The notes under the pieces were generated by a model. It had not been told where the DNA came from, ran no database searches, and saw only the letters and a list, made by a program, of their open reading frames with translations. This document shows positions 6,042 to 15,410 of a DNA stretch of 64,000 bases, piece after piece (within the stretch, counting starts at the first letter, position 1; each line of letters starts with the position of its first letter). Source of the stretch: Stenotrophomonas sp. Its GTDB lineage: Bacteria; Pseudomonadota; Gammaproteobacteria; Xanthomonadales; Xanthomonadaceae. The position numbers were made by a program, and so were the translations under genes. The DNA lies in the NCBI GenBank assembly GCA_051885115.1, contig JBJEWP010000024.1:12002-76001 (forward strand), read 5' to 3'.

Positions 6042-6116
6042 GGGCGGTTAGCTCAGCGGTAGAGCATTGCCTTCACACGGCAAGGGTCACAAGTTCGAAC
6101 CTTGTACCGCCCACCA
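6042..6116 (+). tRNA. tRNA-Val (anticodon CAC)
   Basis: Acceptor GGGCGGT/ACCGCCC, D stem GCTC/GAGC, anticodon stem TTGCC/GGCAA with loop TT-CAC-AC, T arm ACAAG-TTCGAAC-CTTGT, encoded CCA. Confidence 0.98.
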
Positions 6117-6155: not shown

Positions 6156-6348
6156 GTTGCCCGGAATTTGCCATGGTTCCCGCCGGGGGGGGCGGGTGCA
6201 GTTGAACTGCAGGGCGACCTGGTGATGCGGGTGGCGTCGATGATCCACTTGCCTTTGCCCTTCTCGCCACACAGGCACCCGTGCTGGCAGGATGCGGGAT
6301 CTTTTTTTGTTCGCGGTGGCACTGGGCATGGCGAGGTGGATCAAACCG

Positions 6349-7353
6349 ATGGGCAAGTCGGCGGCAACGCTGGCATTGCTGGGGGCGGCAATCTGGGGGG
6401 CGGGAGTCATCCATTTCCATGCCGGTGGCTGGCTGTACGCTGCCGGGCTGCTGTTGTGGGGCGGGCTGGCACTGGCGCTGCTGGTGCTGCTCTGGCGTGG
6501 CGGGCGGGCAAGGGTCTGGGTCGGCGCTGCCTTTGTGCTGGGTCTGCTTGGCCTGGGGCTGTTCTTCAGCAGCCTGCAACCGGCGCAGGACCGGCAGTGG
6601 GCCGATGATGTGGCCCGTCGGCTGCAGGTACGCAGCTTCGATGGCCGCCATGTGGTGCTGGACAACGTGCGCAACTTCAGCTGGCGCAGCCAGACCGATT
6701 ACGACATCGTCTGGGAGCAGCGCCGCTATGACCTGGACCAGCTGCAAAGTGCCGACGTGCTGTTGTCCTACTGGATGGGCCCGGCCATTGCCCACACCCT
6801 GGTGTCCTTCGGTTTCACCGACGGCCGCCAGCTGGTGTTCTCGCTGGAGATCCGCAAGGAGCACGATGAGTCCTTCGATGCCCTGGCCGGTTTCTTCCGT
6901 CGCTATGAGGTGACCCTGGTCGCGGCCGACGAGCGCGACATCATTGCCACCCGCACCAATGCCCGTGGCGAGGATGTCTACCTGTACCGGGTGGCGGCCC
7001 TGCGCGGGCAGGCCTTGCGCCAGTTGTTCGTGGCCTACCTGGAGCAGGCGCGGGCGCTGGATCGGGCGCCGGCCTTTTACAATACCTTGACCAGCAACTG
7101 CACCACGATCGTCTGGCAGCTGGCCCGCCAGGTCAGCCCGCAGTTGCCGCTGGACTGGCGTTTGCTGGCCTCCGGCTATTTTGATGACTATCTGCAGCAG
7201 CTCGGGGCCCTGCCGGCAGGGGTGGCCCCGGAGCAGTTGAAACAGCGTGGGCGGATCACCGAGCGTGCGCGTGCCGACGGCGGCAGCGTGCAGTTCTCGC
7301 AGCGTATCCGTCAGGGCGTACCAGGAATCGGGCAGGGGGCGGTGGATGAATAA
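6349..7353 (+). CDS. DUF4105 (Lnb N-terminal-like) membrane protein
   Basis: Three N-terminal TMs, DNVRNFSW, IAHTLVSFGF, SLEIRKE, FYNTLTSNCTT; start 6349 chosen for the GAGGTGG RBS (6328 and 6292 possible). Confidence 0.8.
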   Translation: MGKSAATLALLGAAIWGAGVIHFHAGGWLYAAGLLLWGGLALALLVLLWRGGRARVWVGAAFVLGLLGLGLFFSSLQPAQDRQWADDVARRLQVRSFDGRHVVLDNVRNFSWRSQTDYDIVWEQRRYDLDQLQSADVLLSYWMGPAIAHTLVSFGFTDGRQLVFSLEIRKEHDESFDALAGFFRRYEVTLVAADERDIIATRTNARGEDVYLYRVAALRGQALRQLFVAYLEQARALDRAPAFYNTLTSNCTTIVWQLARQVSPQLPLDWRLLASGYFDDYLQQLGALPAGVAPEQLKQRGRITERARADGGSVQFSQRIRQGVPGIGQGAVDE

Positions 7354-9358
7354 GAGGCAGGATTGGCGGCTGTGGGGCCGCTTGCTGGTGGCGGCAGTGT
7401 TGCTGGGCATGGCCAGCGGCTGTGCGATGGTGAAGATGCGCGCGGTGAGCACGCCGGATTTCACCGCTGCCAAGCGCTCGGATGTGCTCAGCAGTGGCAA
7501 GCTGGGCCATGCCACCCAGGAGGCGTTGCAGGTGATCGGCCTGGACCCGGCCAGCTGCGGGCGGGCGCAGGCCGACTGCATTGCGCAGATGAGCCAGCGC
7601 CCCGGGGTGGGCAGCGAGGCGCGCCTGGCGGCCCTGGCCGAGTTGTGGACACAGGCGGCATTGCTGGCTTCCGAAGCCGAGCGCAAGGCAGGCAACACGC
7701 CGGGTGCTGCCGCTTCCCCGGCCGCCGGCGAGGCCTGGCTGGAGGCGGCCAGGCATGCCTATGCCTACCTGTTCTTCTCCGGGCGCAGCCCGGCCCAACG
7801 GGCGATGGAAGACCGCCAGCTACAGGTGCGTGACTACTACAACCACGCCGTCGAGCAGTTGACCGCCAGTCTGTTCGAGCGTGCACGCGAGCAGGCCAGT
7901 GCCGGTGGCAGCGGCACCCGTCTGCAGGTTGCCGAGCAGGGCTGGAAGATCACCGCCGATTACGCTGCACTGCAGTTGCAGAGCGTGCCCAAGGCGATGA
8001 TGGCCGCTTCCAGCATCAGTTTTGCCGGCCTGCGCAGTACCTACCGGCGTGATGGCTTCGGTGCCGAGCTGGTGGTGATGATGGAGCCCGAGCAGCTGGT
8101 CCTGCCGCTGGCCGCGAACGAGCAGGAAGAAGGCGGCCGGCGTACCCGGGACAACATCCCCGTCTTCAGTGAGATGCCGGCCATCAATGCCACCGCGGTG
8201 TTGCGTTTTGCCGGGGCCACCCTGGAGCAGGTGCTGGCGACGCGGGAGCTGAGCCTGGTGGTGTACCCGCCCGAACGTACCGCCAGCATCGAGATGGAAG
8301 GCAACCAGGTACCGCTGGCAGCCAATTACACCGCCGCCTACGGCCTGTGGCTGGCCAACTCGGGGTTTGCCGGTGAATCGCTGCGCACCCTGTTCGGGCG
8401 CAGCGAGGGCATCACCCAGCCGCATATCTACCTGATGCAGCCGTATGACCCGGACAAGCGGATCCTGTTCCTGCTGCATGGCCTGGCCAGCAGCCCGGAA
8501 GCCTGGGTCAACCTGGTCAACGAGGTCACCGGTGACCCGGTGCTGCGTGACAATTACCAGGTATGGTCGGTGTACTACCCGACCAACGCCCCGGTGGGCT
8601 TGAACCGCTACACCATCAGCCGGGCGCTCAACCGTACCCTGGCCCATTTCGACCCGCAGGGCAGTGCGGTGGCCAGCCGGGACATGGTGTTTATCGGCCA
8701 TTCGATGGGCGGAATCCTGGCCCGGCTGATGCTCAGCACGCCGGGTGACAGCCTGATGGACGCCATGATGAGTGACTTCCGGCTTGATGCGCAGCGACGT
8801 GAGCGGGTGGAGCGACGGTTGGGGCCGGTCCTGCGCTATCAGCCGCAGGCCAATGTTAGCCGGGCGATCTTCATCGCTGCCCCGCACCAGGGCACGGATA
8901 TCGCCGGCAACCGTTTGGGCCGCTTCATCGGCAAGCTGGTGCGCCTGCCGCTGACCATCCTGGGCGGCTTTGCCGATGTGGTGCAGTTGTTGGCAGACCC
9001 CAATGCGGTGGACGAGGAGCAGGCTGCAGAAAAGCCACGGGTGCCCAACAGCATCGACAACCTGAAGGCTTCCGACCCCTTCATCCGGGCGGCGGCACGC
9101 CTGCCGTTGCGGCCGGGCCTGCCGTATCACTCGATCATTGCCCGGCGTGACCCGGAGGTGCCCTTGGAGCAGTCCAATGATGGCCTGGTGCCGTACTGGA
9201 GTGCCCACCTGGACGGGGCGCAGTCGGAAAAGGTGATCAACTCCTGGCACAGCGTGCAGGAAACCCCGGAGGCGGTGCTGGAGGTGCGGCGGATCCTGCA
9301 CCAGGAGCTGGCCGCCGACGGCAACCTGCCTGGCGGCCTGCAGCCGGGCCAGCTGTAA
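7346..9358 (+). CDS. Lipoprotein alpha/beta hydrolase (esterase/lipase-like)
   Basis: Lipobox ASG-C, LLHGLASSP oxyanion region, GHSMGG nucleophile elbow, NDGLVP, SWHS; overlaps the DUF4105 stop. Confidence 0.8.
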   Translation: MNKRQDWRLWGRLLVAAVLLGMASGCAMVKMRAVSTPDFTAAKRSDVLSSGKLGHATQEALQVIGLDPASCGRAQADCIAQMSQRPGVGSEARLAALAELWTQAALLASEAERKAGNTPGAAASPAAGEAWLEAARHAYAYLFFSGRSPAQRAMEDRQLQVRDYYNHAVEQLTASLFERAREQASAGGSGTRLQVAEQGWKITADYAALQLQSVPKAMMAASSISFAGLRSTYRRDGFGAELVVMMEPEQLVLPLAANEQEEGGRRTRDNIPVFSEMPAINATAVLRFAGATLEQVLATRELSLVVYPPERTASIEMEGNQVPLAANYTAAYGLWLANSGFAGESLRTLFGRSEGITQPHIYLMQPYDPDKRILFLLHGLASSPEAWVNLVNEVTGDPVLRDNYQVWSVYYPTNAPVGLNRYTISRALNRTLAHFDPQGSAVASRDMVFIGHSMGGILARLMLSTPGDSLMDAMMSDFRLDAQRRERVERRLGPVLRYQPQANVSRAIFIAAPHQGTDIAGNRLGRFIGKLVRLPLTILGGFADVVQLLADPNAVDEEQAAEKPRVPNSIDNLKASDPFIRAAARLPLRPGLPYHSIIARRDPEVPLEQSNDGLVPYWSAHLDGAQSEKVINSWHSVQETPEAVLEVRRILHQELAADGNLPGGLQPGQL

Positions 9359-9364
9359 GACATG

Positions 9365-9391
9365 AAAAAGGCCGCGGCATTGACCGCGGCC
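9365..9391 (-). terminator. Terminator between convergent genes
   Basis: GGCCGCGG-N6-CCGCGGCC hairpin with a T5 tail on the minus strand. Confidence 0.7.
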
Positions 9392-9414: not shown

Positions 9415-9822
9415 TTACACCGCCGCTTCGATTTCCGGCATCGCCAGACGGGCCTTGGTCAGGGCCATGCCCAGGTTGGCGGTACGCCGGCAGACAAACA
9501 CCATCACGTAGCTGGGGTAACGCTTGCCACGCATGAACACGTGGATCAGGTTCTCGCTGTTGACGATGATTTCCTGGAAGTAGTGTGCGCCTTCGCCCTC
9601 GGGCAGGCCGCGCGAGCGGCGGAACAGCTGCTCGATGGTGCGCACGTTCGGGCCTTCATACAGGTCGGCGGTAGCTGCGGCGACCAGATCCAGCACTTCA
9701 CGCGGGTGCGAATCGACGGTACGCACGGACAGCAGCATGCCCGAGGAAATGTCGACATAGCCGGCGGCCAGGCATTCGGGGATGCTGCTGACGGATTTTT
9801 GGATGACCGAATCAAGTGACAT
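9415..9822 (-). CDS. Hypothetical 135-aa protein, possible Roadblock/LC7-like fold
   Basis: AGGAAGGA RBS; MSLDSVIQKSVSSIPECLAAGYVDISSGMLL; helix-beta-beta-helix-beta-beta-beta-helix pattern; fold is inferred. Confidence 0.7.
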   Translation of the reverse strand: MSLDSVIQKSVSSIPECLAAGYVDISSGMLLSVRTVDSHPREVLDLVAAATADLYEGPNVRTIEQLFRRSRGLPEGEGAHYFQEIIVNSENLIHVFMRGKRYPSYVMVFVCRRTANLGMALTKARLAMPEIEAAV

Positions 9823-9851
9823 GAGGTGTTCCTTCCTGTTGCGGGTGGGGG

Positions 9852-11342
9852 TCAAAGGTCTGGGGCACGGATGAGCAGGTTGATTTCCAGTTCGTGCAGC
9901 AGTTGTTCCTGTACGGCCGACTGCACAAAGCCCGGCTCGATGGCGCGCAGGCGGCGCAGCGATTCCTCGGCGGTCAGGCCCTGGCGGACCAGCCAGCTGC
10001 CAAGCACGGTGCCGGTGCGGCCCAGCCCGGCCAGGCAGTGCACGGCCACCACCTCGCCCTGGTCGAGCAGGCGCTCGATCTTGACCAGCAGCATCTTCAT
10101 CCACATCAGTGGCGGCGCATGGCGGTCTACCACGCTCATGTGCAGGGTGCGCAGGCCAGCGGCAGGAATGGCCGTCTGGGTCATCGGCCTTTCGGTGAGG
10201 TTGATCAGCACGGTGATTCCGACGTTGCGCAGCAGGGCCAGGTCATGTTCCAGCGGCAGCATCGCTCCGGGCATCGGGCAGCCGGCCAGCTTGCCCGGCA
10301 CCAGCCAGTGGAAGCCGGTGGGGCCGCGGCTGGCAGGCAGCACCCCGGGTGGCAGGGTGTCCGGCCGACCCAGATCACGGGTCAGGCTGGCTGCGTTGCC
10401 ATCGGCCGGAGTCATGGCAATGGGGGCGGGGGCATTGACGGCCAGCGGTGGCGTTGTGGCAGGTGCTGCAGGTGGTGCAGTGACGGCCGCAGGTTCGGTG
10501 GCAATCCCGCCCATATTGTCGTAGCCGGCTTCCAGATCTTCCGGGCGGCTGTCCGGGGCAGCGACATGGCAGCTGCCGGTGCGCAGGAACTGGGCCAGCA
10601 CCGGGTGATTGTCCGGGTTGGCGAAGAAGCCGGCGTTGTCGCAGGCCACCTGGACCCGGCCGCCGGCCAGCAGGACGAGGTGGTCGGCAATCTGCCTTGC
10701 CTGCTGCTGGTTGTGCAGCACCACCAGGCAGGTGTGGCTGCCGCCCAGCTGGCGGATCAGCTGCAGCACCCGCTCGCTCTGGCCAGCATCCAGCTCGCTG
10801 GTCGGCTCGTCGATGAGCAGGATCTGGCTGCCGGTCAGAACCGCGCGCACGATCATGGCGCAGCGCATCAGCTCGCGCGGCAGGTCGAACAGGCGTTGTT
10901 CGCACTTGTCCAGCAGCTCGGTCAGGCCGTAGTGCTGCAGGGCGTCCAATGCGCGCTGGCGCATCTGTGCCGGGCTCAGTGTCATGCCGCTGACACGTTG
11001 CGCCGCTACAAGGGAGTCGAGCAGGCTGAAGTCCAGCTCGCGTGGGTGCTGCTGGGCCAGGGCTGGAGGGGCACCGGCCAGCGTATGCAGTGGCTGACCG
11101 TCAATCTGGATGCTGCCCTGGACGCTGCCATGGGCGCTGTGCAGGCCGGCAAGGGTCTTGAGCAGAGTGGATTTCCCAGTTCCCCCCGGGCCCATCACGA
11201 CGGTGATGCCCGGGCCACGGATGGACAGGTTGATCCCGGTCAGGATGGTGCGCCGGCCAAGCTGGATGCCCCAGTCGACAAAATCAATTTGCCCGCCCGG
11301 TAATTGCTGCTCACCGTCAGGACAGGAAAAATCTACCGTCAT
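9852..11342 (-). CDS. ABC-type ATPase domain fused to a dual-specificity (CX5R) phosphatase
   Basis: Walker A GPGGTGKS, Walker B ILLIDE, H-loop VLHN, P/A-rich linker, FHWLVPGKLAG...VHCLAGLGRTG; start ATG 11342 or GTG 11375. Confidence 0.85.
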   Translation of the reverse strand: MTVDFSCPDGEQQLPGGQIDFVDWGIQLGRRTILTGINLSIRGPGITVVMGPGGTGKSTLLKTLAGLHSAHGSVQGSIQIDGQPLHTLAGAPPALAQQHPRELDFSLLDSLVAAQRVSGMTLSPAQMRQRALDALQHYGLTELLDKCEQRLFDLPRELMRCAMIVRAVLTGSQILLIDEPTSELDAGQSERVLQLIRQLGGSHTCLVVLHNQQQARQIADHLVLLAGGRVQVACDNAGFFANPDNHPVLAQFLRTGSCHVAAPDSRPEDLEAGYDNMGGIATEPAAVTAPPAAPATTPPLAVNAPAPIAMTPADGNAASLTRDLGRPDTLPPGVLPASRGPTGFHWLVPGKLAGCPMPGAMLPLEHDLALLRNVGITVLINLTERPMTQTAIPAAGLRTLHMSVVDRHAPPLMWMKMLLVKIERLLDQGEVVAVHCLAGLGRTGTVLGSWLVRQGLTAEESLRRLRAIEPGFVQSAVQEQLLHELEINLLIRAPDL

Positions 11343-11523
11343 TGAAAATCCCGAAACGTCGCTGTTCTTTGCCACTCCTGCGGAGCGGCTCCCCTGTACA
11401 AACCGTGCAACCGGACTTCAACGCCCAAACGTGTGTTCAGTGTTGCCCGTGCTGCCTTCCCTGTCCACGTCAGAAAGTGTGGTGCAGGGCACAAAAGTGT
11501 GCGCCATTGTGCAGTCTTGCCAA

Positions 11524-12342
11524 TTAACCCAGCTTGGCCAACTCACGTCCGCGTTGGCAGGCCGCGGCAATGGCCTGGCTGACCAGCGGCTGCAGGCCAC
11601 CGCCAGCCAGCACTTCCAGTGCGGCCTGGGTGGTGCCGTTGGGCGATGTGACGGCCTGGCGCAACTGGGTCGGCGACTGGCCGCTCTCGCTGAGCATGCG
11701 GCCGGCGCCGAGGATGGTCTGCACCACCAGCTGGTGGGCGCTGTCGGCATCCAGGCCCTGCTCGATCGCCGCCGCCTGCATCGCTTCGGCCAGGGCAAAG
11801 ACATAGGCCGGGCCGGAGCCGGACACCGCGGTCACCGCATCCATCAGGCTTTCATCGTCGATCCAGCGCACCTGGCCGGCGGCCTGCAGGATGCGCGCCG
11901 CCTGTTCGCGCTCGGCTTGATCGCTGCGTGCGTCGGCATACAGGCCGGTCATGCCGGCACCAAGCAGGGCTGGGGTGTTGGGCATGGCGCGCACCACCCG
12001 CGCGGCATCCCCCAGCCACTGCTGCAGGGTGGCGCTGGTGATGCCGGCGGCAATGGAGATGACCTGCTGGCCGGCGGGCAGGCGCGGGGCCAGTCCGGCG
12101 CAGACGCTGGCCATCACCTGCGGCTTGACTGCCAGCACCCAGCTGGCCGCCTGCAGGCTGGCGCTGTCGATGCTGGCGGCAACACGCACCGCGTACTGCT
12201 GCTGCAGCGCCTGGCGCAGGCTGTCCACCGGCTCGACGACCTCGATCGCGTCGGGCTCGGTGCCGCCCTTGAGCAGGCCGGCAACCAGGCTGCGCGCCAT
12301 GTTGCCGCCACCAATGAAGCTCACCAGAAGGGTTGAAGACAT
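11524..12342 (-). CDS. proC: Pyrroline-5-carboxylate reductase
   Basis: FIGGGNMA, LAVKPQ, RAMPNTP, AVSGSGPAY, VTSPNGTT. Confidence 0.97.
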   Translation of the reverse strand: MSSTLLVSFIGGGNMARSLVAGLLKGGTEPDAIEVVEPVDSLRQALQQQYAVRVAASIDSASLQAASWVLAVKPQVMASVCAGLAPRLPAGQQVISIAAGITSATLQQWLGDAARVVRAMPNTPALLGAGMTGLYADARSDQAEREQAARILQAAGQVRWIDDESLMDAVTAVSGSGPAYVFALAEAMQAAAIEQGLDADSAHQLVVQTILGAGRMLSESGQSPTQLRQAVTSPNGTTQAALEVLAGGGLQPLVSQAIAAACQRGRELAKLG

Positions 12343-12364
12343 GGCCGGGTTCCTTGTGCTGGGG

Positions 12365-13066
12365 TCAATTCTGGGCGGGGCCGGGGGCGGGTTTGCCGGG
12401 GCGCGCACCGAACAGGGCGCTGCCGACCCGGACCAGGGTGGCGCCGGCGCTCACCGCCTGCGGGTAATCGGCACTCATGCCCATGGACAGGGTGTCGGCT
12501 TGCGGGTAGCTGGCCTGCAGTCGCCGCTGCAGTGCAGCCATGGCCTGGAAGGCCGGCAGTGACAGCTGCGGGTCGTCATGGGCGGCGGGAATGGCCATCA
12601 GCCCGCGCAGGCGCAGCCGGGGCTGGGCAGCGATACGTGCGGCCAGCGGCATCACCTGCGACGGGGTGCAGCCGTGCTTGCTGTGCTCGTCGTCAATGTT
12701 GACCTGGATCAGCACGTTCAGCGGTGTGGCAGCGGCCGGACGGTAGCGGGCCAGGGCGTCGACCAGCTTGTCGCGGTCCACGCTGTGCACCCAGTCAAAG
12801 TGGCTGGCGGCCAGCTCGGCCTTGTTGGACTGCAGATGGCCGATCAGGTGCCACTCCAGCGACAGGTCGGCCAGCTCGGCGATCTTGGCCAGTGCTTCCT
12901 GCACGTAGTTCTCACCGAACGCGCGCTGGCCTTGCGCGGCCAGGGCGGCTACCGATGCTGCCGGCTGGGTCTTGGACACCGCCAGCAGCTGTGCAGCCGG
13001 CCGGCCGGTGGCTGCGGCGAGCTGCTGCAGGCGGCTCAGGATCAATGACAGCGGGGTGGCGGACAC
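12365..13066 (-). CDS. yggS: PLP homeostasis protein (YggS family)
   Basis: LLAVSKTQ, FGENYVQE, WHLIGHLQSNK, LSMGMS, VRVGSALFG; GTG start inferred. Confidence 0.95.
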   Translation of the reverse strand: MSATPLSLILSRLQQLAAATGRPAAQLLAVSKTQPAASVAALAAQGQRAFGENYVQEALAKIAELADLSLEWHLIGHLQSNKAELAASHFDWVHSVDRDKLVDALARYRPAAATPLNVLIQVNIDDEHSKHGCTPSQVMPLAARIAAQPRLRLRGLMAIPAAHDDPQLSLPAFQAMAALQRRLQASYPQADTLSMGMSADYPQAVSAGATLVRVGSALFGARPGKPAPGPAQN

Positions 13067-13151
13067 GGCATTTCCAGCTTGGGCAAGGAGGCTATACTGC
13101 CCCCCGGGGACATTTCCTTCCAGCCAACGGCTACCCAGGGGATCAAAAAGT

Positions 13152-14189
13152 ATGGATATCGCCGAACTACTGGCGTTCTCGGTCAAGAACAAGGCCTCGG
13201 ACCTGCACCTGTCTGCCGGCCTGCCGCCGATGATTCGCGTTGATGGCGACGTGCGCCGCATCAACATTCCGGCACTGGACCACAAGCAGGTCCACGCGCT
13301 GGTCTACGACATCATGAGCGACAAGCAGCGTCGTGACTTCGAAGAATTCCTCGAGGTCGACTTCTCCTTCGAAATTCCCTCGCTGGCGCGCTTCCGTGTC
13401 AACGCGTTCAACCAGAACCGTGGCGCCGGTGCGGTGTTCCGTACCATTCCTTCCGAAGTGCTTACCCTGGAAGACCTGGCCTGCCCGCCGATCTTCCGCG
13501 AGCTGATCGAACAGCCGCAGGGGCTGATCCTGGTCACCGGGCCGACCGGCTCGGGCAAGTCGACCACGCTGGCGGCGATGATCGACCACATCAACAAGAA
13601 CGAATACGGCCACATCCTCACCGTCGAGGACCCGATTGAATTCGTGCACACCCCGCAGAAATGCCTGATCAACCAGCGCGAAGTGCACCGTGACACCCAC
13701 GGCTTCAACGAAGCGCTGCGTTCGGCCCTGCGTGAGGACCCGGACATCATCCTGGTCGGCGAATTGCGTGACCTGGAAACCATCCGCCTGGCGCTGACCG
13801 CGGCGGAAACCGGCCACCTGGTGTTCGGCACCCTGCACACCAGCTCGGCGGCCAAGACCATCGACCGTATCATCGACGTGTTCCCGGCCGGCGAAAAGCC
13901 GATGGTGCGCTCGATGCTGTCCGAGTCGCTGCGCGCGGTGATTTCCCAGGCCCTGCTGAAGAAGGTTGGCGGCGGCCGAGTTGCCTCGCACGAAATCATG
14001 GTGGCCACCCCGGCCATCCGCAACCTGATCCGCGAGGACAAGGTGGCGCAGATGTATTCGGCCATCCAGACCGGCCAGGCGATGGGCATGCAGACCCTGG
14101 ACCAGAACCTGCAGGACCTGGTCAAACGCAGCCTGGTCACCCGCAACCAGGCCCGCGAGTACGCCAAGGACAAGCGTTTGTTCGAATGA
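13152..14189 (+). CDS. pilT: Type IV pilus retraction ATPase PilT
   Basis: MDIAELLAFSVKNKASDLHL, GPTGSGKST, LREDPD, AIRNLIRE. Confidence 0.98.
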   Translation: MDIAELLAFSVKNKASDLHLSAGLPPMIRVDGDVRRINIPALDHKQVHALVYDIMSDKQRRDFEEFLEVDFSFEIPSLARFRVNAFNQNRGAGAVFRTIPSEVLTLEDLACPPIFRELIEQPQGLILVTGPTGSGKSTTLAAMIDHINKNEYGHILTVEDPIEFVHTPQKCLINQREVHRDTHGFNEALRSALREDPDIILVGELRDLETIRLALTAAETGHLVFGTLHTSSAAKTIDRIIDVFPAGEKPMVRSMLSESLRAVISQALLKKVGGGRVASHEIMVATPAIRNLIREDKVAQMYSAIQTGQAMGMQTLDQNLQDLVKRSLVTRNQAREYAKDKRLFE

Positions 14190-14279: not shown

Positions 14280-15410
14280 ATGAGCAGCCTCGACTTCACT
14301 TCCTTCCTCAAGCTGATGGCGCACCAGAAGGCGTCGGACCTGTTCATCACCGCCGGCATGCCGCCGGCGATGAAGGTGAACGGCAAGATCAGCCCGATCA
14401 CCCAGACCCCGCTCACCGCGCAGCAGAGCCGCGACATGGTGCTCAACGTGATGACGCCCAAGCAGCGCGAGGAGTTTGAAAAGACCCACGAGTGCAATTT
14501 CGCCATCGGCGTGGCCGGGGTGGGGCGTTTCCGTGTCAGCTGCTTCTACCAGCGCAATCAGGTGGGCATGGTGCTGCGCCGGATCGAGACCCGCATTCCC
14601 ACCGTGGAAGAGCTGTCGCTGCCGCCGGTGATCAAGTCACTGGCCATGACCAAGCGCGGCATCATCATCTTCGTCGGCGCCACCGGCACCGGCAAGTCGA
14701 CCTCGCTGGCAGCGATGATCGGTTACCGCAACCAGAACTCGTCCGGCCACATCATCACCATCGAGGACCCGATCGAGTTCGTGCACAAGCACGCCGGCTG
14801 CATCATCACCCAGCGTGAAGTGGGAATTGATACCGACACCTGGGAGGCGGCGCTGAAGAACACCCTGCGCCAGGCCCCGGACGTGATCATGATCGGCGAG
14901 GTGCGCACCCGCGAGGGCATGGACCACGCCATCGCCTTCGCCGAAACCGGCCACCTGGTGCTGTGCACCCTGCATGCCAACAACGCCAACCAGGCGATGG
15001 ACCGCATCATCAACTTCTTCCCCGAAGACCGCCGCAACCAGTTGCTGATGGACCTGTCGCTGAACCTGAAGGGTGTGGTGGCCCAGCAGCTGGTGCCGAC
15101 CCCGGACGGCAAGGGGCGCAAGGTGGCGATGGAAATCCTGCTCGGCACCCCGCTGGTGCAGGACTACATCCGCGACGGCGAGGTGCACAAGCTCAAGGAA
15201 GTGATGAAGGATTCGGTCCAGCTGGGCATGAAGACCTTCGACCAGAGCCTGTTCGAGCTCTACCAGGCCGGTGAGATCAGCTACGACGACGCGCTGCGCT
15301 TTGCAGACTCGCAGAACGAAGTGCGGCTGCGCATCAAGCTGTCCCAAGGCGGCGATGCCAAGACCCTGGCCCAGGGCCTGGATGGGGTGGAGATCGCCGA
15401 AGTTCGTTGA
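14280..15410 (+). CDS. pilU: Type IV pilus retraction ATPase PilU
   Basis: GATGTGKST, LRQAPD, TLHANNANQ; follows pilT. Confidence 0.97.
   Translation: MSSLDFTSFLKLMAHQKASDLFITAGMPPAMKVNGKISPITQTPLTAQQSRDMVLNVMTPKQREEFEKTHECNFAIGVAGVGRFRVSCFYQRNQVGMVLRRIETRIPTVEELSLPPVIKSLAMTKRGIIIFVGATGTGKSTSLAAMIGYRNQNSSGHIITIEDPIEFVHKHAGCIITQREVGIDTDTWEAALKNTLRQAPDVIMIGEVRTREGMDHAIAFAETGHLVLCTLHANNANQAMDRIINFFPEDRRNQLLMDLSLNLKGVVAQQLVPTPDGKGRKVAMEILLGTPLVQDYIRDGEVHKLKEVMKDSVQLGMKTFDQSLFELYQAGEISYDDALRFADSQNEVRLRIKLSQGGDAKTLAQGLDGVEIAEVR

Follow-up and report, generated by a model that had tools for sequence, protein, structure and literature searches.

A conserved ATPase-phosphatase fusion and its predicted Roadblock partner in Stenotrophomonas, with links to Group 3 MglA systems

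What does an ATPase domain of the transporter type do when it is joined, within one polypeptide, to a phosphatase and no transporter is encoded beside it? The question is raised by a gene of Stenotrophomonas sp. (GenBank assembly GCA_051885115.1, contig JBJEWP010000024.1), which lies within the stretch of 64,000 nucleotides analyzed here as a whole and referred to below as the window. Its product combines an ATP-binding cassette (ABC) nucleotide-binding domain (NBD) with a CX5R phosphatase domain of the dual-specificity phosphatase/protein tyrosine phosphatase (DSP/PTP) type, and the gene is directly followed by that of a small protein, P0002, for which a Roadblock fold is predicted. The fusion is confirmed as genuine and widely conserved, its linkage to P0002 is nearly absolute, and related pairs sit in gene clusters that match the Group 3 MglA systems by architecture and taxonomy. 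We consider it reasonably likely that the pair is a cytoplasmic ATP switch with a phosphatase output and a Roadblock partner, working together with Group 3 MglA signaling.

The ATPase-phosphatase fusion as a conserved family

The open reading frame (ORF) of the fusion extends over 507 codons when read from the GTG at position 11375, and the likelier start is the ATG at position 11342, which gives a protein of 496 amino acids (aa), because the identical protein in the database (P0003) is 496 aa long and the closest homologs begin with MTV. Pfam places ABC_tran at residues 45 to 193 (57.7 bits, cut-off 25) and three DSP/PTP models (PF22785, PF22784, and PF00782, with 76.2, 55, and 46 bits) at residues 353 to 493, with all of these scores above the gathering cut-offs. 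The best sequence matches in the PDB are a bacterial DSP-family protein (25xa), DUSP23, archaeal-type PTPs, and PstB. The AlphaFold2 model, built with an alignment of 24 sequences, contains two confident domains joined by a linker of low confidence (Table 1), which differs in length among homologs and is missing in one group of fusions (Type B, described below). The phosphatase domain also bears an [IV]Q[ST]xxQ motif. An earlier reading of this DNA, made from the letters alone (the sequence-only reading), had proposed a two-domain layout, listed its motifs, and pointed to a phosphatase of the CDC14/DUSP23 type. Every motif was found at its place, Pfam and AlphaFold2 both give an ABC NBD and a DSP/PTP domain, and the linker between them is disordered in the AlphaFold2 model.

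A search of 5.8 billion proteins with the fusion returned at least 556 clusters at E ≤ 0.001, a lower bound obtained from 8000 scored candidates. Among the best 120 of these 556 clusters, which come from Stenotrophomonas, other Xanthomonadales, Comamonadaceae, Methylophilaceae, and Entomomonas, almost all hold the ABC_tran and DSP/PTP Pfam domains together; with the NBD alone as the query, 118 of the best 120 relatives were fused. The NBD and the PTP domain lie within one ORF at all 19 loci sampled from whole genomes across different families, and the one-ORF fusion was found in every relative examined (more than 40 loci, including complete genomes and independent assemblies from several orders). 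The idea that a frameshift or an assembly error had joined two genes, which the sequence-only reading had named as a way in which it could fail, is refuted by this recurrence of the same single ORF in complete genomes and many independent assemblies. The whole-genome search with the fusion as the query (37 candidates per genome, E ≤ 1e-40) undercounted carriers, at 3/41; the carriers that it missed (G025, G029, and G035) were recovered with P0002 as the query. Gene picking by longest ORF and GC content at third codon positions was unreliable in high-GC loci, and genes were therefore anchored by tblastn. A motif scan of genome contigs with generic Walker A and PTP-loop patterns found ordinary ABC ATPases only (L001 to L080).

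In an alignment of 29 diverse members of the family, with NBD identity down to 27%, the Walker A motif, the Q-loop Gln, and the Walker B Asp-Glu are present in all, and these three together with the H-loop His are intact in 28. The H-loop His, the CX5R loop, and the general-acid Asp are kept in all but one member, and the [IV]Q[ST]xxQ motif is kept throughout. The LSGGQ signature, or C-loop, completes the ATP site of the opposite subunit and is required for the canonical ATP-sandwich dimer. It is absent from all 29 members, with its trailing Arg alone conserved. Since the NBD of the window retains the A-loop aromatic residue, the Walker A Lys, the Q-loop Gln, the Walker B Asp-Glu, and the H-loop His, it appears to keep all that is needed for ATP binding and would probably hydrolyze ATP. 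The replacement of LSGGQ noted in the sequence-only reading holds for all 29 members, in which the ATP-binding and catalytic residues stay, and the NBD looks repurposed, as that reading had put forward.

No permease or binding-protein gene adjoins the fusion, either in the window or at any of some 40 related loci, in agreement with the orphan status that had been ascribed to the NBD and contrary to the other way in which that reading could fail, namely, that homologs always sit with a permease. The sole transporter gene near any fusion locus (L148) lies on the opposite strand and encodes a complete half-transporter, which has an NBD of its own. PstB, the protein of which the tail of the NBD had been said to be reminiscent, is indeed the best NCBIfam model for this domain (TIGR00972), and E. 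coli PstB is the first Foldseek match (9k3s/9k3x; TM score of 0.79 to 0.82 on the target), with MlaF of the MlaF-MlaB complex also among the top matches. The likeness is weak, however, since the NBD scores 96.6 to 98.7 bits against a cut-off of 343.2. The same genome encodes a genuine PstB on contig C104 (384 bits), and a further 13 of its ABC ATPases outscore the fusion NBD on the PstB model.

The predicted Roadblock partner and the MglA-type GTPase clusters

The AlphaFold2 model of P0002 (predicted local distance difference test [pLDDT] of 86) has the topology H-E-E-H-H-E-E-E-H, which agrees with the alpha-beta-beta-alpha-beta-beta-beta(-alpha) order of the Roadblock fold. Foldseek matched the model with probability 1.00 to a Roadblock/LC7 protein (3kye), MglB (6hjm/1j3w/3t1r), MglC (7ct3), and LAMTOR2, at E values of ∼1e-6 and TM scores of 0.63 to 0.68 against Roadblock-type structures. 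Neither P0002 nor its distant paralogs have a match in Pfam, including Robl_LC7 (PF03259), or in NCBIfam. The protein has 3331 relatives in the database. Its identity is 70 to 96% across Xanthomonadales, Comamonadaceae, and Entomomonas, where that of the fusion is 40 to 60%, and across lineages it is 57 to 97% identical, compared with 27 to 72% for the NBD in the same genomes. P0002 is thus under very strong constraint.

P0002 lies directly downstream of the fusion at 30 of 31 fusion-anchored or close-ortholog loci. All 25 close orthologs from a 401-genome class sample, a 301-genome order sample, and congeners directly follow a fusion, and look-ups anchored on the fusion found a gene for 134 to 136 aa directly downstream in 13 of 14 cases. 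The exception is the P0084/P0083 lineage, in which the fusion copy (L125, 7896-9317) is degenerate: Gly stands in place of the P-loop Cys (VHGLGGLARTG) and Arg in place of the H-loop His, the acid Asp is gone, the Walker A motif reads GPVDAGKT, and no Roadblock gene follows downstream. The P0084 lineage forms a long branch within the Stenotrophomonas-like subclade, and the enzyme and its partner look jointly decayed, as would fit a single functional unit. In the window, P0002 is apparently cotranscribed with the fusion; the spacing and signals of the two genes are given in Table 1. The sequence-only reading had mentioned the 135-aa neighbor and given it too little weight; the gene is far more conserved than the fusion and is the key to the system. 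A second pairing of the family with a protein phosphatase, independent of the first, is seen in another genome (G422, 35% GC), where two P0002-like Roadblock genes stand in tandem behind a gene for a PP2C-type phosphatase (L111, 3262-5061).

Distant relatives of P0002 (∼30% identical) are encoded by the last gene of a four-gene cluster that has no NBD-PTP fusion and in which the order is a ∼335-aa protein (X), a 175-aa Ras/PF03029-type GTPase, a canonical Robl_LC7 protein, and the P0002-like protein. The pair itself is mostly found in clusters of the same kind, in two conserved orders. Type A (L107-L110 and L127-L134) has the order X, GTPase, NBD-PTP, P0002, and Roadblock, with X proteins that resemble REC/winged helix-turn-helix (wHTH) proteins, and Type B (L135, L137, and L139-L142) has the order NBD-PTP, P0002, a ∼215-aa wHTH-like protein, GTPase, and Roadblock. 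The ∼215-aa protein that sits between P0002 and the GTPase in Type B (e.g., L140, 8331-8975, and L137, 6811-7461) has a weak MarR/ArsR-like wHTH match and may correspond, in shorter form, to the REC/wHTH-like X protein of Group 3 systems.

The GTPase lies within the cluster of the pair in 15 of the 19 carriers in the order sample and in all four carriers of the class sample from outside the genus. Across the class sample it was found in 56 of 400 genomes (14%), compared with six of six carriers (Fisher p = 6e-6), and all five further stand-alone carriers have it elsewhere in the genome, which brings the total to 11 of 11 carriers tested. The genome of the window likewise has the GTPase away from the pair, with an X-(MglA-like GTPase)-Roadblock cluster on contig C123 and a second intact GTPase-Roadblock pair on contig C131. 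A third MglA-like GTPase gene of this genome (contig C6, 13264-13769) is split over two frames and is either a frameshifted pseudogene or the product of a sequencing error.

Group 3 MglA systems have been described from beta- and gamma-Proteobacteria, including Stenotrophomonas, Xanthomonas, and Neisseria, in a study that does not use the word "phosphatase" and that set ABC proteins aside as noise (Wuichet and Sogaard-Andersen 2014, PMC4316618). By gene layout and taxonomy, the pair appears to belong with these systems, and its architecture would then not be an isolated one. The sequence-only reading had found no characterized protein to match it, which still holds for the literature as regards a characterized member, but the surrounding systems had already been catalogued (PMC4316618). 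In a maximum-likelihood tree of 26 fusions, all stand-alone forms make up one clade (support of 98/99) beside Type A, and Type B makes up a separate clade (100/100). The arrangement in the window is therefore a derived, detached form.

Proposed working of the pair and rival explanations

We propose that the fusion acts as a soluble ABC-fold ATPase tethered by a flexible linker to a CX5R, DUSP23-like protein phosphatase. The NBD is likely to bind ATP and probably to hydrolyze it without forming a canonical, signature-dependent dimer and would therefore be a switch, not a motor. By analogy with MglB-MglA and MlaB-MlaF, P0002, probably a dimer, might bind the NBD in a nucleotide-dependent manner and read or set its nucleotide state, a step that we put forward tentatively. 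The nucleotide state of the NBD could in turn gate the tethered phosphatase through its activity, its localization, or its access to substrate, which is plausible at a similarly guarded level. The phosphatase would strip a phospho-Tyr (or Ser/Thr) mark from a component or target of the MglA pathway; the co-occurrence data suggest a target within the Group 3 pathway, and we judge the chances for and against such a target to be evenly balanced.

The physiological output could be the type IV pilus or surface behavior, although we regard this as rather doubtful. MglA controls type IV pili in Myxococcus. Regulation of type IV pili by MglA systems has been documented (PMC7519303, PMC4316618), and mutation of a Group 3 orphan mglB in Snodgrassella altered pilus-dependent behavior (PMC11112851). 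The genes pilT and pilU stand beside the pair in the window, in congeners, and in S. mori; pilS and pilR are directly upstream of it in Entomomonas, a chpA-like gene is 6 kb away in Diaphorobacter, and a pilin-domain gene is 4 kb away in Dokdonella. In its fullest and more speculative form, our proposal would make the pair an ATP-driven counterpart of MglA/MglB, in which a Roadblock dimer, as a dedicated regulator, would activate or read the nucleotide state of an ABC-fold ATPase that has lost the capacity for canonical dimerization. The ATP/ADP state would gate the tethered tyrosine-type phosphatase, which would reset a phosphorylation mark of the Group 3 MglA pathway for type IV pilus or surface behavior. 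If this unlikely scheme were true, the pair would be the first Roadblock-ABC ATPase regulatory pair and the first case of a bacterial small-GTPase module wired directly to protein dephosphorylation.

Several observations weigh against the proposed reading. At the locus of the window, no GTPase is encoded within 6 kb of the pair, which may thus act independently of MglA. The Roadblock assignment of P0002 is drawn from a predicted structure, with no match to Robl_LC7. As regards the output, a type IV pilus gene lies near the pair in four of nine stand-alone contexts (nominal p ∼0.02, judged post hoc and soft), and the Type A and Type B clusters showed no pilus genes in their vicinity. Proteins with GGDEF/EAL domains, truncated globins, and two-component systems also recur beside the module, so the output could be a different one.

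In a rival explanation, the pair would be an autonomous ATP-gated phosphatase switch that is independent of MglA, with the Roadblock protein acting only as a dimeric scaffold or localization adaptor and with the embedding in MglA operons reflecting shared regulation or the shared ancestry of the Roadblock genes. The whole clade that includes the window keeps the pair conserved in many neighborhoods without an adjoining GTPase, and some genomes of the genus (G012) have the GTPase without the pair, as this explanation would have it. It is nonetheless unlikely, given that all 11 carrier genomes hold a Group 3-like GTPase against a background of 14%, that the GTPase shares the cluster in most carriers of the order sample, in two conserved gene orders, and that the distant P0002 paralogs themselves belong to GTPase clusters. 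A substrate other than protein, with the NBD supplying or sensing nucleotide, is a quite improbable variant; such a substrate might be a lipid (phospholipid or phosphoinositide-like), a sugar phosphate, a nucleotide, or the 5′ end of an RNA. CX5R folds of the DUSP/PTEN/CDC14 type do include lipid, RNA, and glycan phosphatases, and there is a weak Pfam match to PTP-NADK, but the best relatives of solved structure are the protein phosphatases DUSP23 and archaeal PTPs, and the surrounding genes serve signaling, not lipid or nucleotide metabolism.

Docking of the NBD as a working or decoy subunit on a transporter encoded elsewhere (e.g., Pst), which would couple the transport state to the phosphatase, draws on the rank of PstB as the best NCBIfam model and best structural match and on one Methylotenera locus at which genes for an OmpR-type regulator and a PhoR-domain kinase flank the pair. 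We consider it highly improbable: the signature motif is missing in every aligned member, the ∼40 loci offer no adjoining permease or binding-protein gene, the PstB score of 97 to 99 bits falls far below the cut-off in a genome that has a true PstB and 13 ABC ATPases closer to it, and the conserved partner is a Roadblock protein rather than a membrane protein. The decoy subunit suggested in the sequence-only reading is accordingly not supported, since no transporter genes co-occur with the fusion and its conserved partners are the predicted Roadblock protein and, in most lineages, an MglA-like GTPase with a Roadblock protein of its own. A toxin-immunity pair is implied by the name "phosphatase domain-containing putative toxin" that NCBI gives to some homologs and by the best Pfam match, the polymorphic-toxin DSP-PTPase model PF22785 (Tc-R-P), along with the small gene that follows the phosphatase. 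This is extremely improbable for a protein whose N-terminal part matches an ABC NBD only, with no secretion or trafficking domain, and whose neighbor has a predicted Roadblock fold and is 57 to 97% identical across orders, the opposite of a polymorphic immunity gene; the pair also sits in signaling operons and beside housekeeping genes, and PADLOC gives generic ABC similarity only. A reading as a defense system was dropped because the PADLOC matches (mad3, mad8, and AriA) reflect generic ABC-ATPase similarity.

Genomic surroundings and comparison with known systems

The features of the fusion, its partner, and the neighboring genes are given in Table 1. The position of the pair on the side of proC recurs in two congeners (L143 and L144), in S. 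mori (L088), and in a metagenome-assembled genome (MAG) of Lysobacteraceae (L147).

Table 1. Positions of the fusion, its motifs, the partner gene, and context genes in the window
Feature	Position	Strand	Evidence or remark
Fusion ORF (ABC-NBD/linker/CX5R phosphatase)	9852..11375	-	Stop codon 9852-9854
ABC-type NBD, residues 28-270, ends FFxNP...FLRTGSC	10566..11294	-	Pfam ABC_tran; AlphaFold2 pLDDT mostly >90; best Foldseek match PstB
Walker A GPGGTGKS (K68), residues 62-69	11169..11192	-	Kept in 29/29 diverse members
LPRELMR at the ABC-signature position, residues 165-171, in place of LSGGQxQR	10863..10883	-	Alignment to P-glycoprotein; family keeps R171 only
Motif ILLIDEPTSELD, residues 185-196			
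Walker B ILLIDE (D189, catalytic E190)	10806..10823	-	Family alignment
H-loop His221; VLHN, residues 219-222	10713-10715	-	Family alignment
NBD tail motif FFANPDNHPVLAQFLRTG, residues 250-267			
Pro/Ala-rich disordered linker, residues 285-339	10359..10523	-	AlphaFold2 pLDDT <50; alignment gaps
DSP/PTP-like phosphatase domain, residues 350-504	9864..10328	-	Pfam, PDB matches, AlphaFold2, motif conservation
General-acid Asp417; loop SVVDRHAP, residues 414-421	10125-10127	-	Kept in family
Phosphatase P-loop HCLAGLGRT (Cys447, Arg453), residues 446-454	10014..10040	-	Family alignment
P0002, 135-aa partner with predicted Roadblock/MglB fold	9415..9822	-	AlphaFold2, Foldseek; directly downstream of fusion
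Shine-Dalgarno AGGAAGGA	9830..9837	-	Within the 29-nt gap from the fusion stop codon to the P0002 ATG
Intrinsic terminator-like hairpin, then TTTTTC	9370..9391	-	After P0002; end of the two-gene unit
proC	11524-12408	-	Context gene
yggS-like	12365-13285	-	Context gene
pilT	13155-14189	+	Context gene
pilU	14280-15410	+	Context gene
tRNA-Val(CAC)	6042-6116		Context gene
Lnb_N-domain protein	6292-7353	Convergent with P0002	After tRNA-Val(CAC)
Alpha/beta-hydrolase, 670-703 aa	∼7247-9358	Convergent with P0002	Runs towards the P0002 terminator

Three kinds of neighbors recur or stand out at other loci. A gene for a truncated (bacterial-type) globin is found downstream of the P0002 ortholog in three lineages, immediately adjoining it in L109 (5363-6001) and L149 (10190-11332) and about 600 nt away in L108 (3800-5392); in two of the three the globin is fused to ferredoxin or reductase domains. 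Such a neighbor may provide an O2, NO, or redox input to the Cys-based phosphatase. Genes for GGDEF or PAS-GGDEF-EAL proteins lie beside Type A clusters (L109, 3591-4781; L110, 3391-5463; and L129, 11474-13291), which hints at a link to cyclic di-GMP signaling. At a single locus, in a Methylotenera MAG (L149, 7030-12728), the pair and the globin gene are enclosed by the genes for the OmpR-type regulator and the PhoR-domain histidine kinase, a curious setting for a pair whose NBD has a PstB-like ancestry.

Our literature search found no publication on the ATPase-phosphatase fusion, on its obligate Roadblock partner, or on the position of the two within Group 3 systems, and to our knowledge Group 3 MglA systems have received almost no experimental study. 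The component folds are all known, and the surrounding GTPase system is already catalogued. What is added is that Group 3 MglA systems, which occur in many beta- and gamma-Proteobacteria, would gain two conserved components, the fusion and a Roadblock protein under unusual constraint, and with them a suggested concrete output in the form of protein dephosphorylation. An ABC family that has its catalytic residues, has no signature, and is partnered by a Roadblock protein also bears on the use of ABC domains as repurposed switches. The names "ABC transporter ATP-binding protein" and "putative toxin" under which the fusion appears in databases are probably wrong and worth correcting.

Among known proteins, PstB resembles the fusion NBD as its top NCBIfam model and Foldseek match and in a similar C-terminal tail motif, but the NBD is far below the cut-off for that model, has no LSGGQ, and has no pstSCA genes nearby. 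The phosphatase domain resembles DUSP23/VHZ and the archaeal SsoPTP and Tk-PTP in its HCxxGxGRTG motif, in an acid Asp ∼30 residues upstream of it, in the [IV]Q[ST]xxQ motif downstream, and in its compact size (∼150 aa); those enzymes consist of a single domain, whereas here an ATPase is attached to the domain and a Roadblock protein is inherited along with it. In the MlaF-MlaB complex of E. coli (PDB 6xgy/6xbd), a small alpha/beta accessory protein likewise binds and regulates an ABC NBD. MlaF, however, has a normal signature motif and serves the permease MlaE, MlaB has a STAS fold rather than a Roadblock fold, and the complex has no attached phosphatase.

A parallel in gene arrangement is found with MglA-MglB of Myxococcus xanthus and Thermus thermophilus and its paralog MglC, where a small Roadblock-fold protein is encoded beside a P-loop NTPase, and most lineages of the pair have an MglA-like GTPase and a canonical Roadblock gene in the same operon. 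The direct NTPase partner of P0002 is an ABC-fold ATPase carrying a phosphatase and not a Ras-like GTPase, and P0002 is not recognized by the Pfam model Robl_LC7 and has no known activity as a GTPase-activating protein or guanine nucleotide exchange factor. For the Group 3 MglA systems, finally, the taxa match, and the published account fits the X-GTPase-Roadblock(-P0002-like) clusters found here, including that on contig C123 of the genome of the window; the insertion of NBD-PTP and P0002 into this layout and the stand-alone form seen in the window are additions to the published description (PMC4316618).

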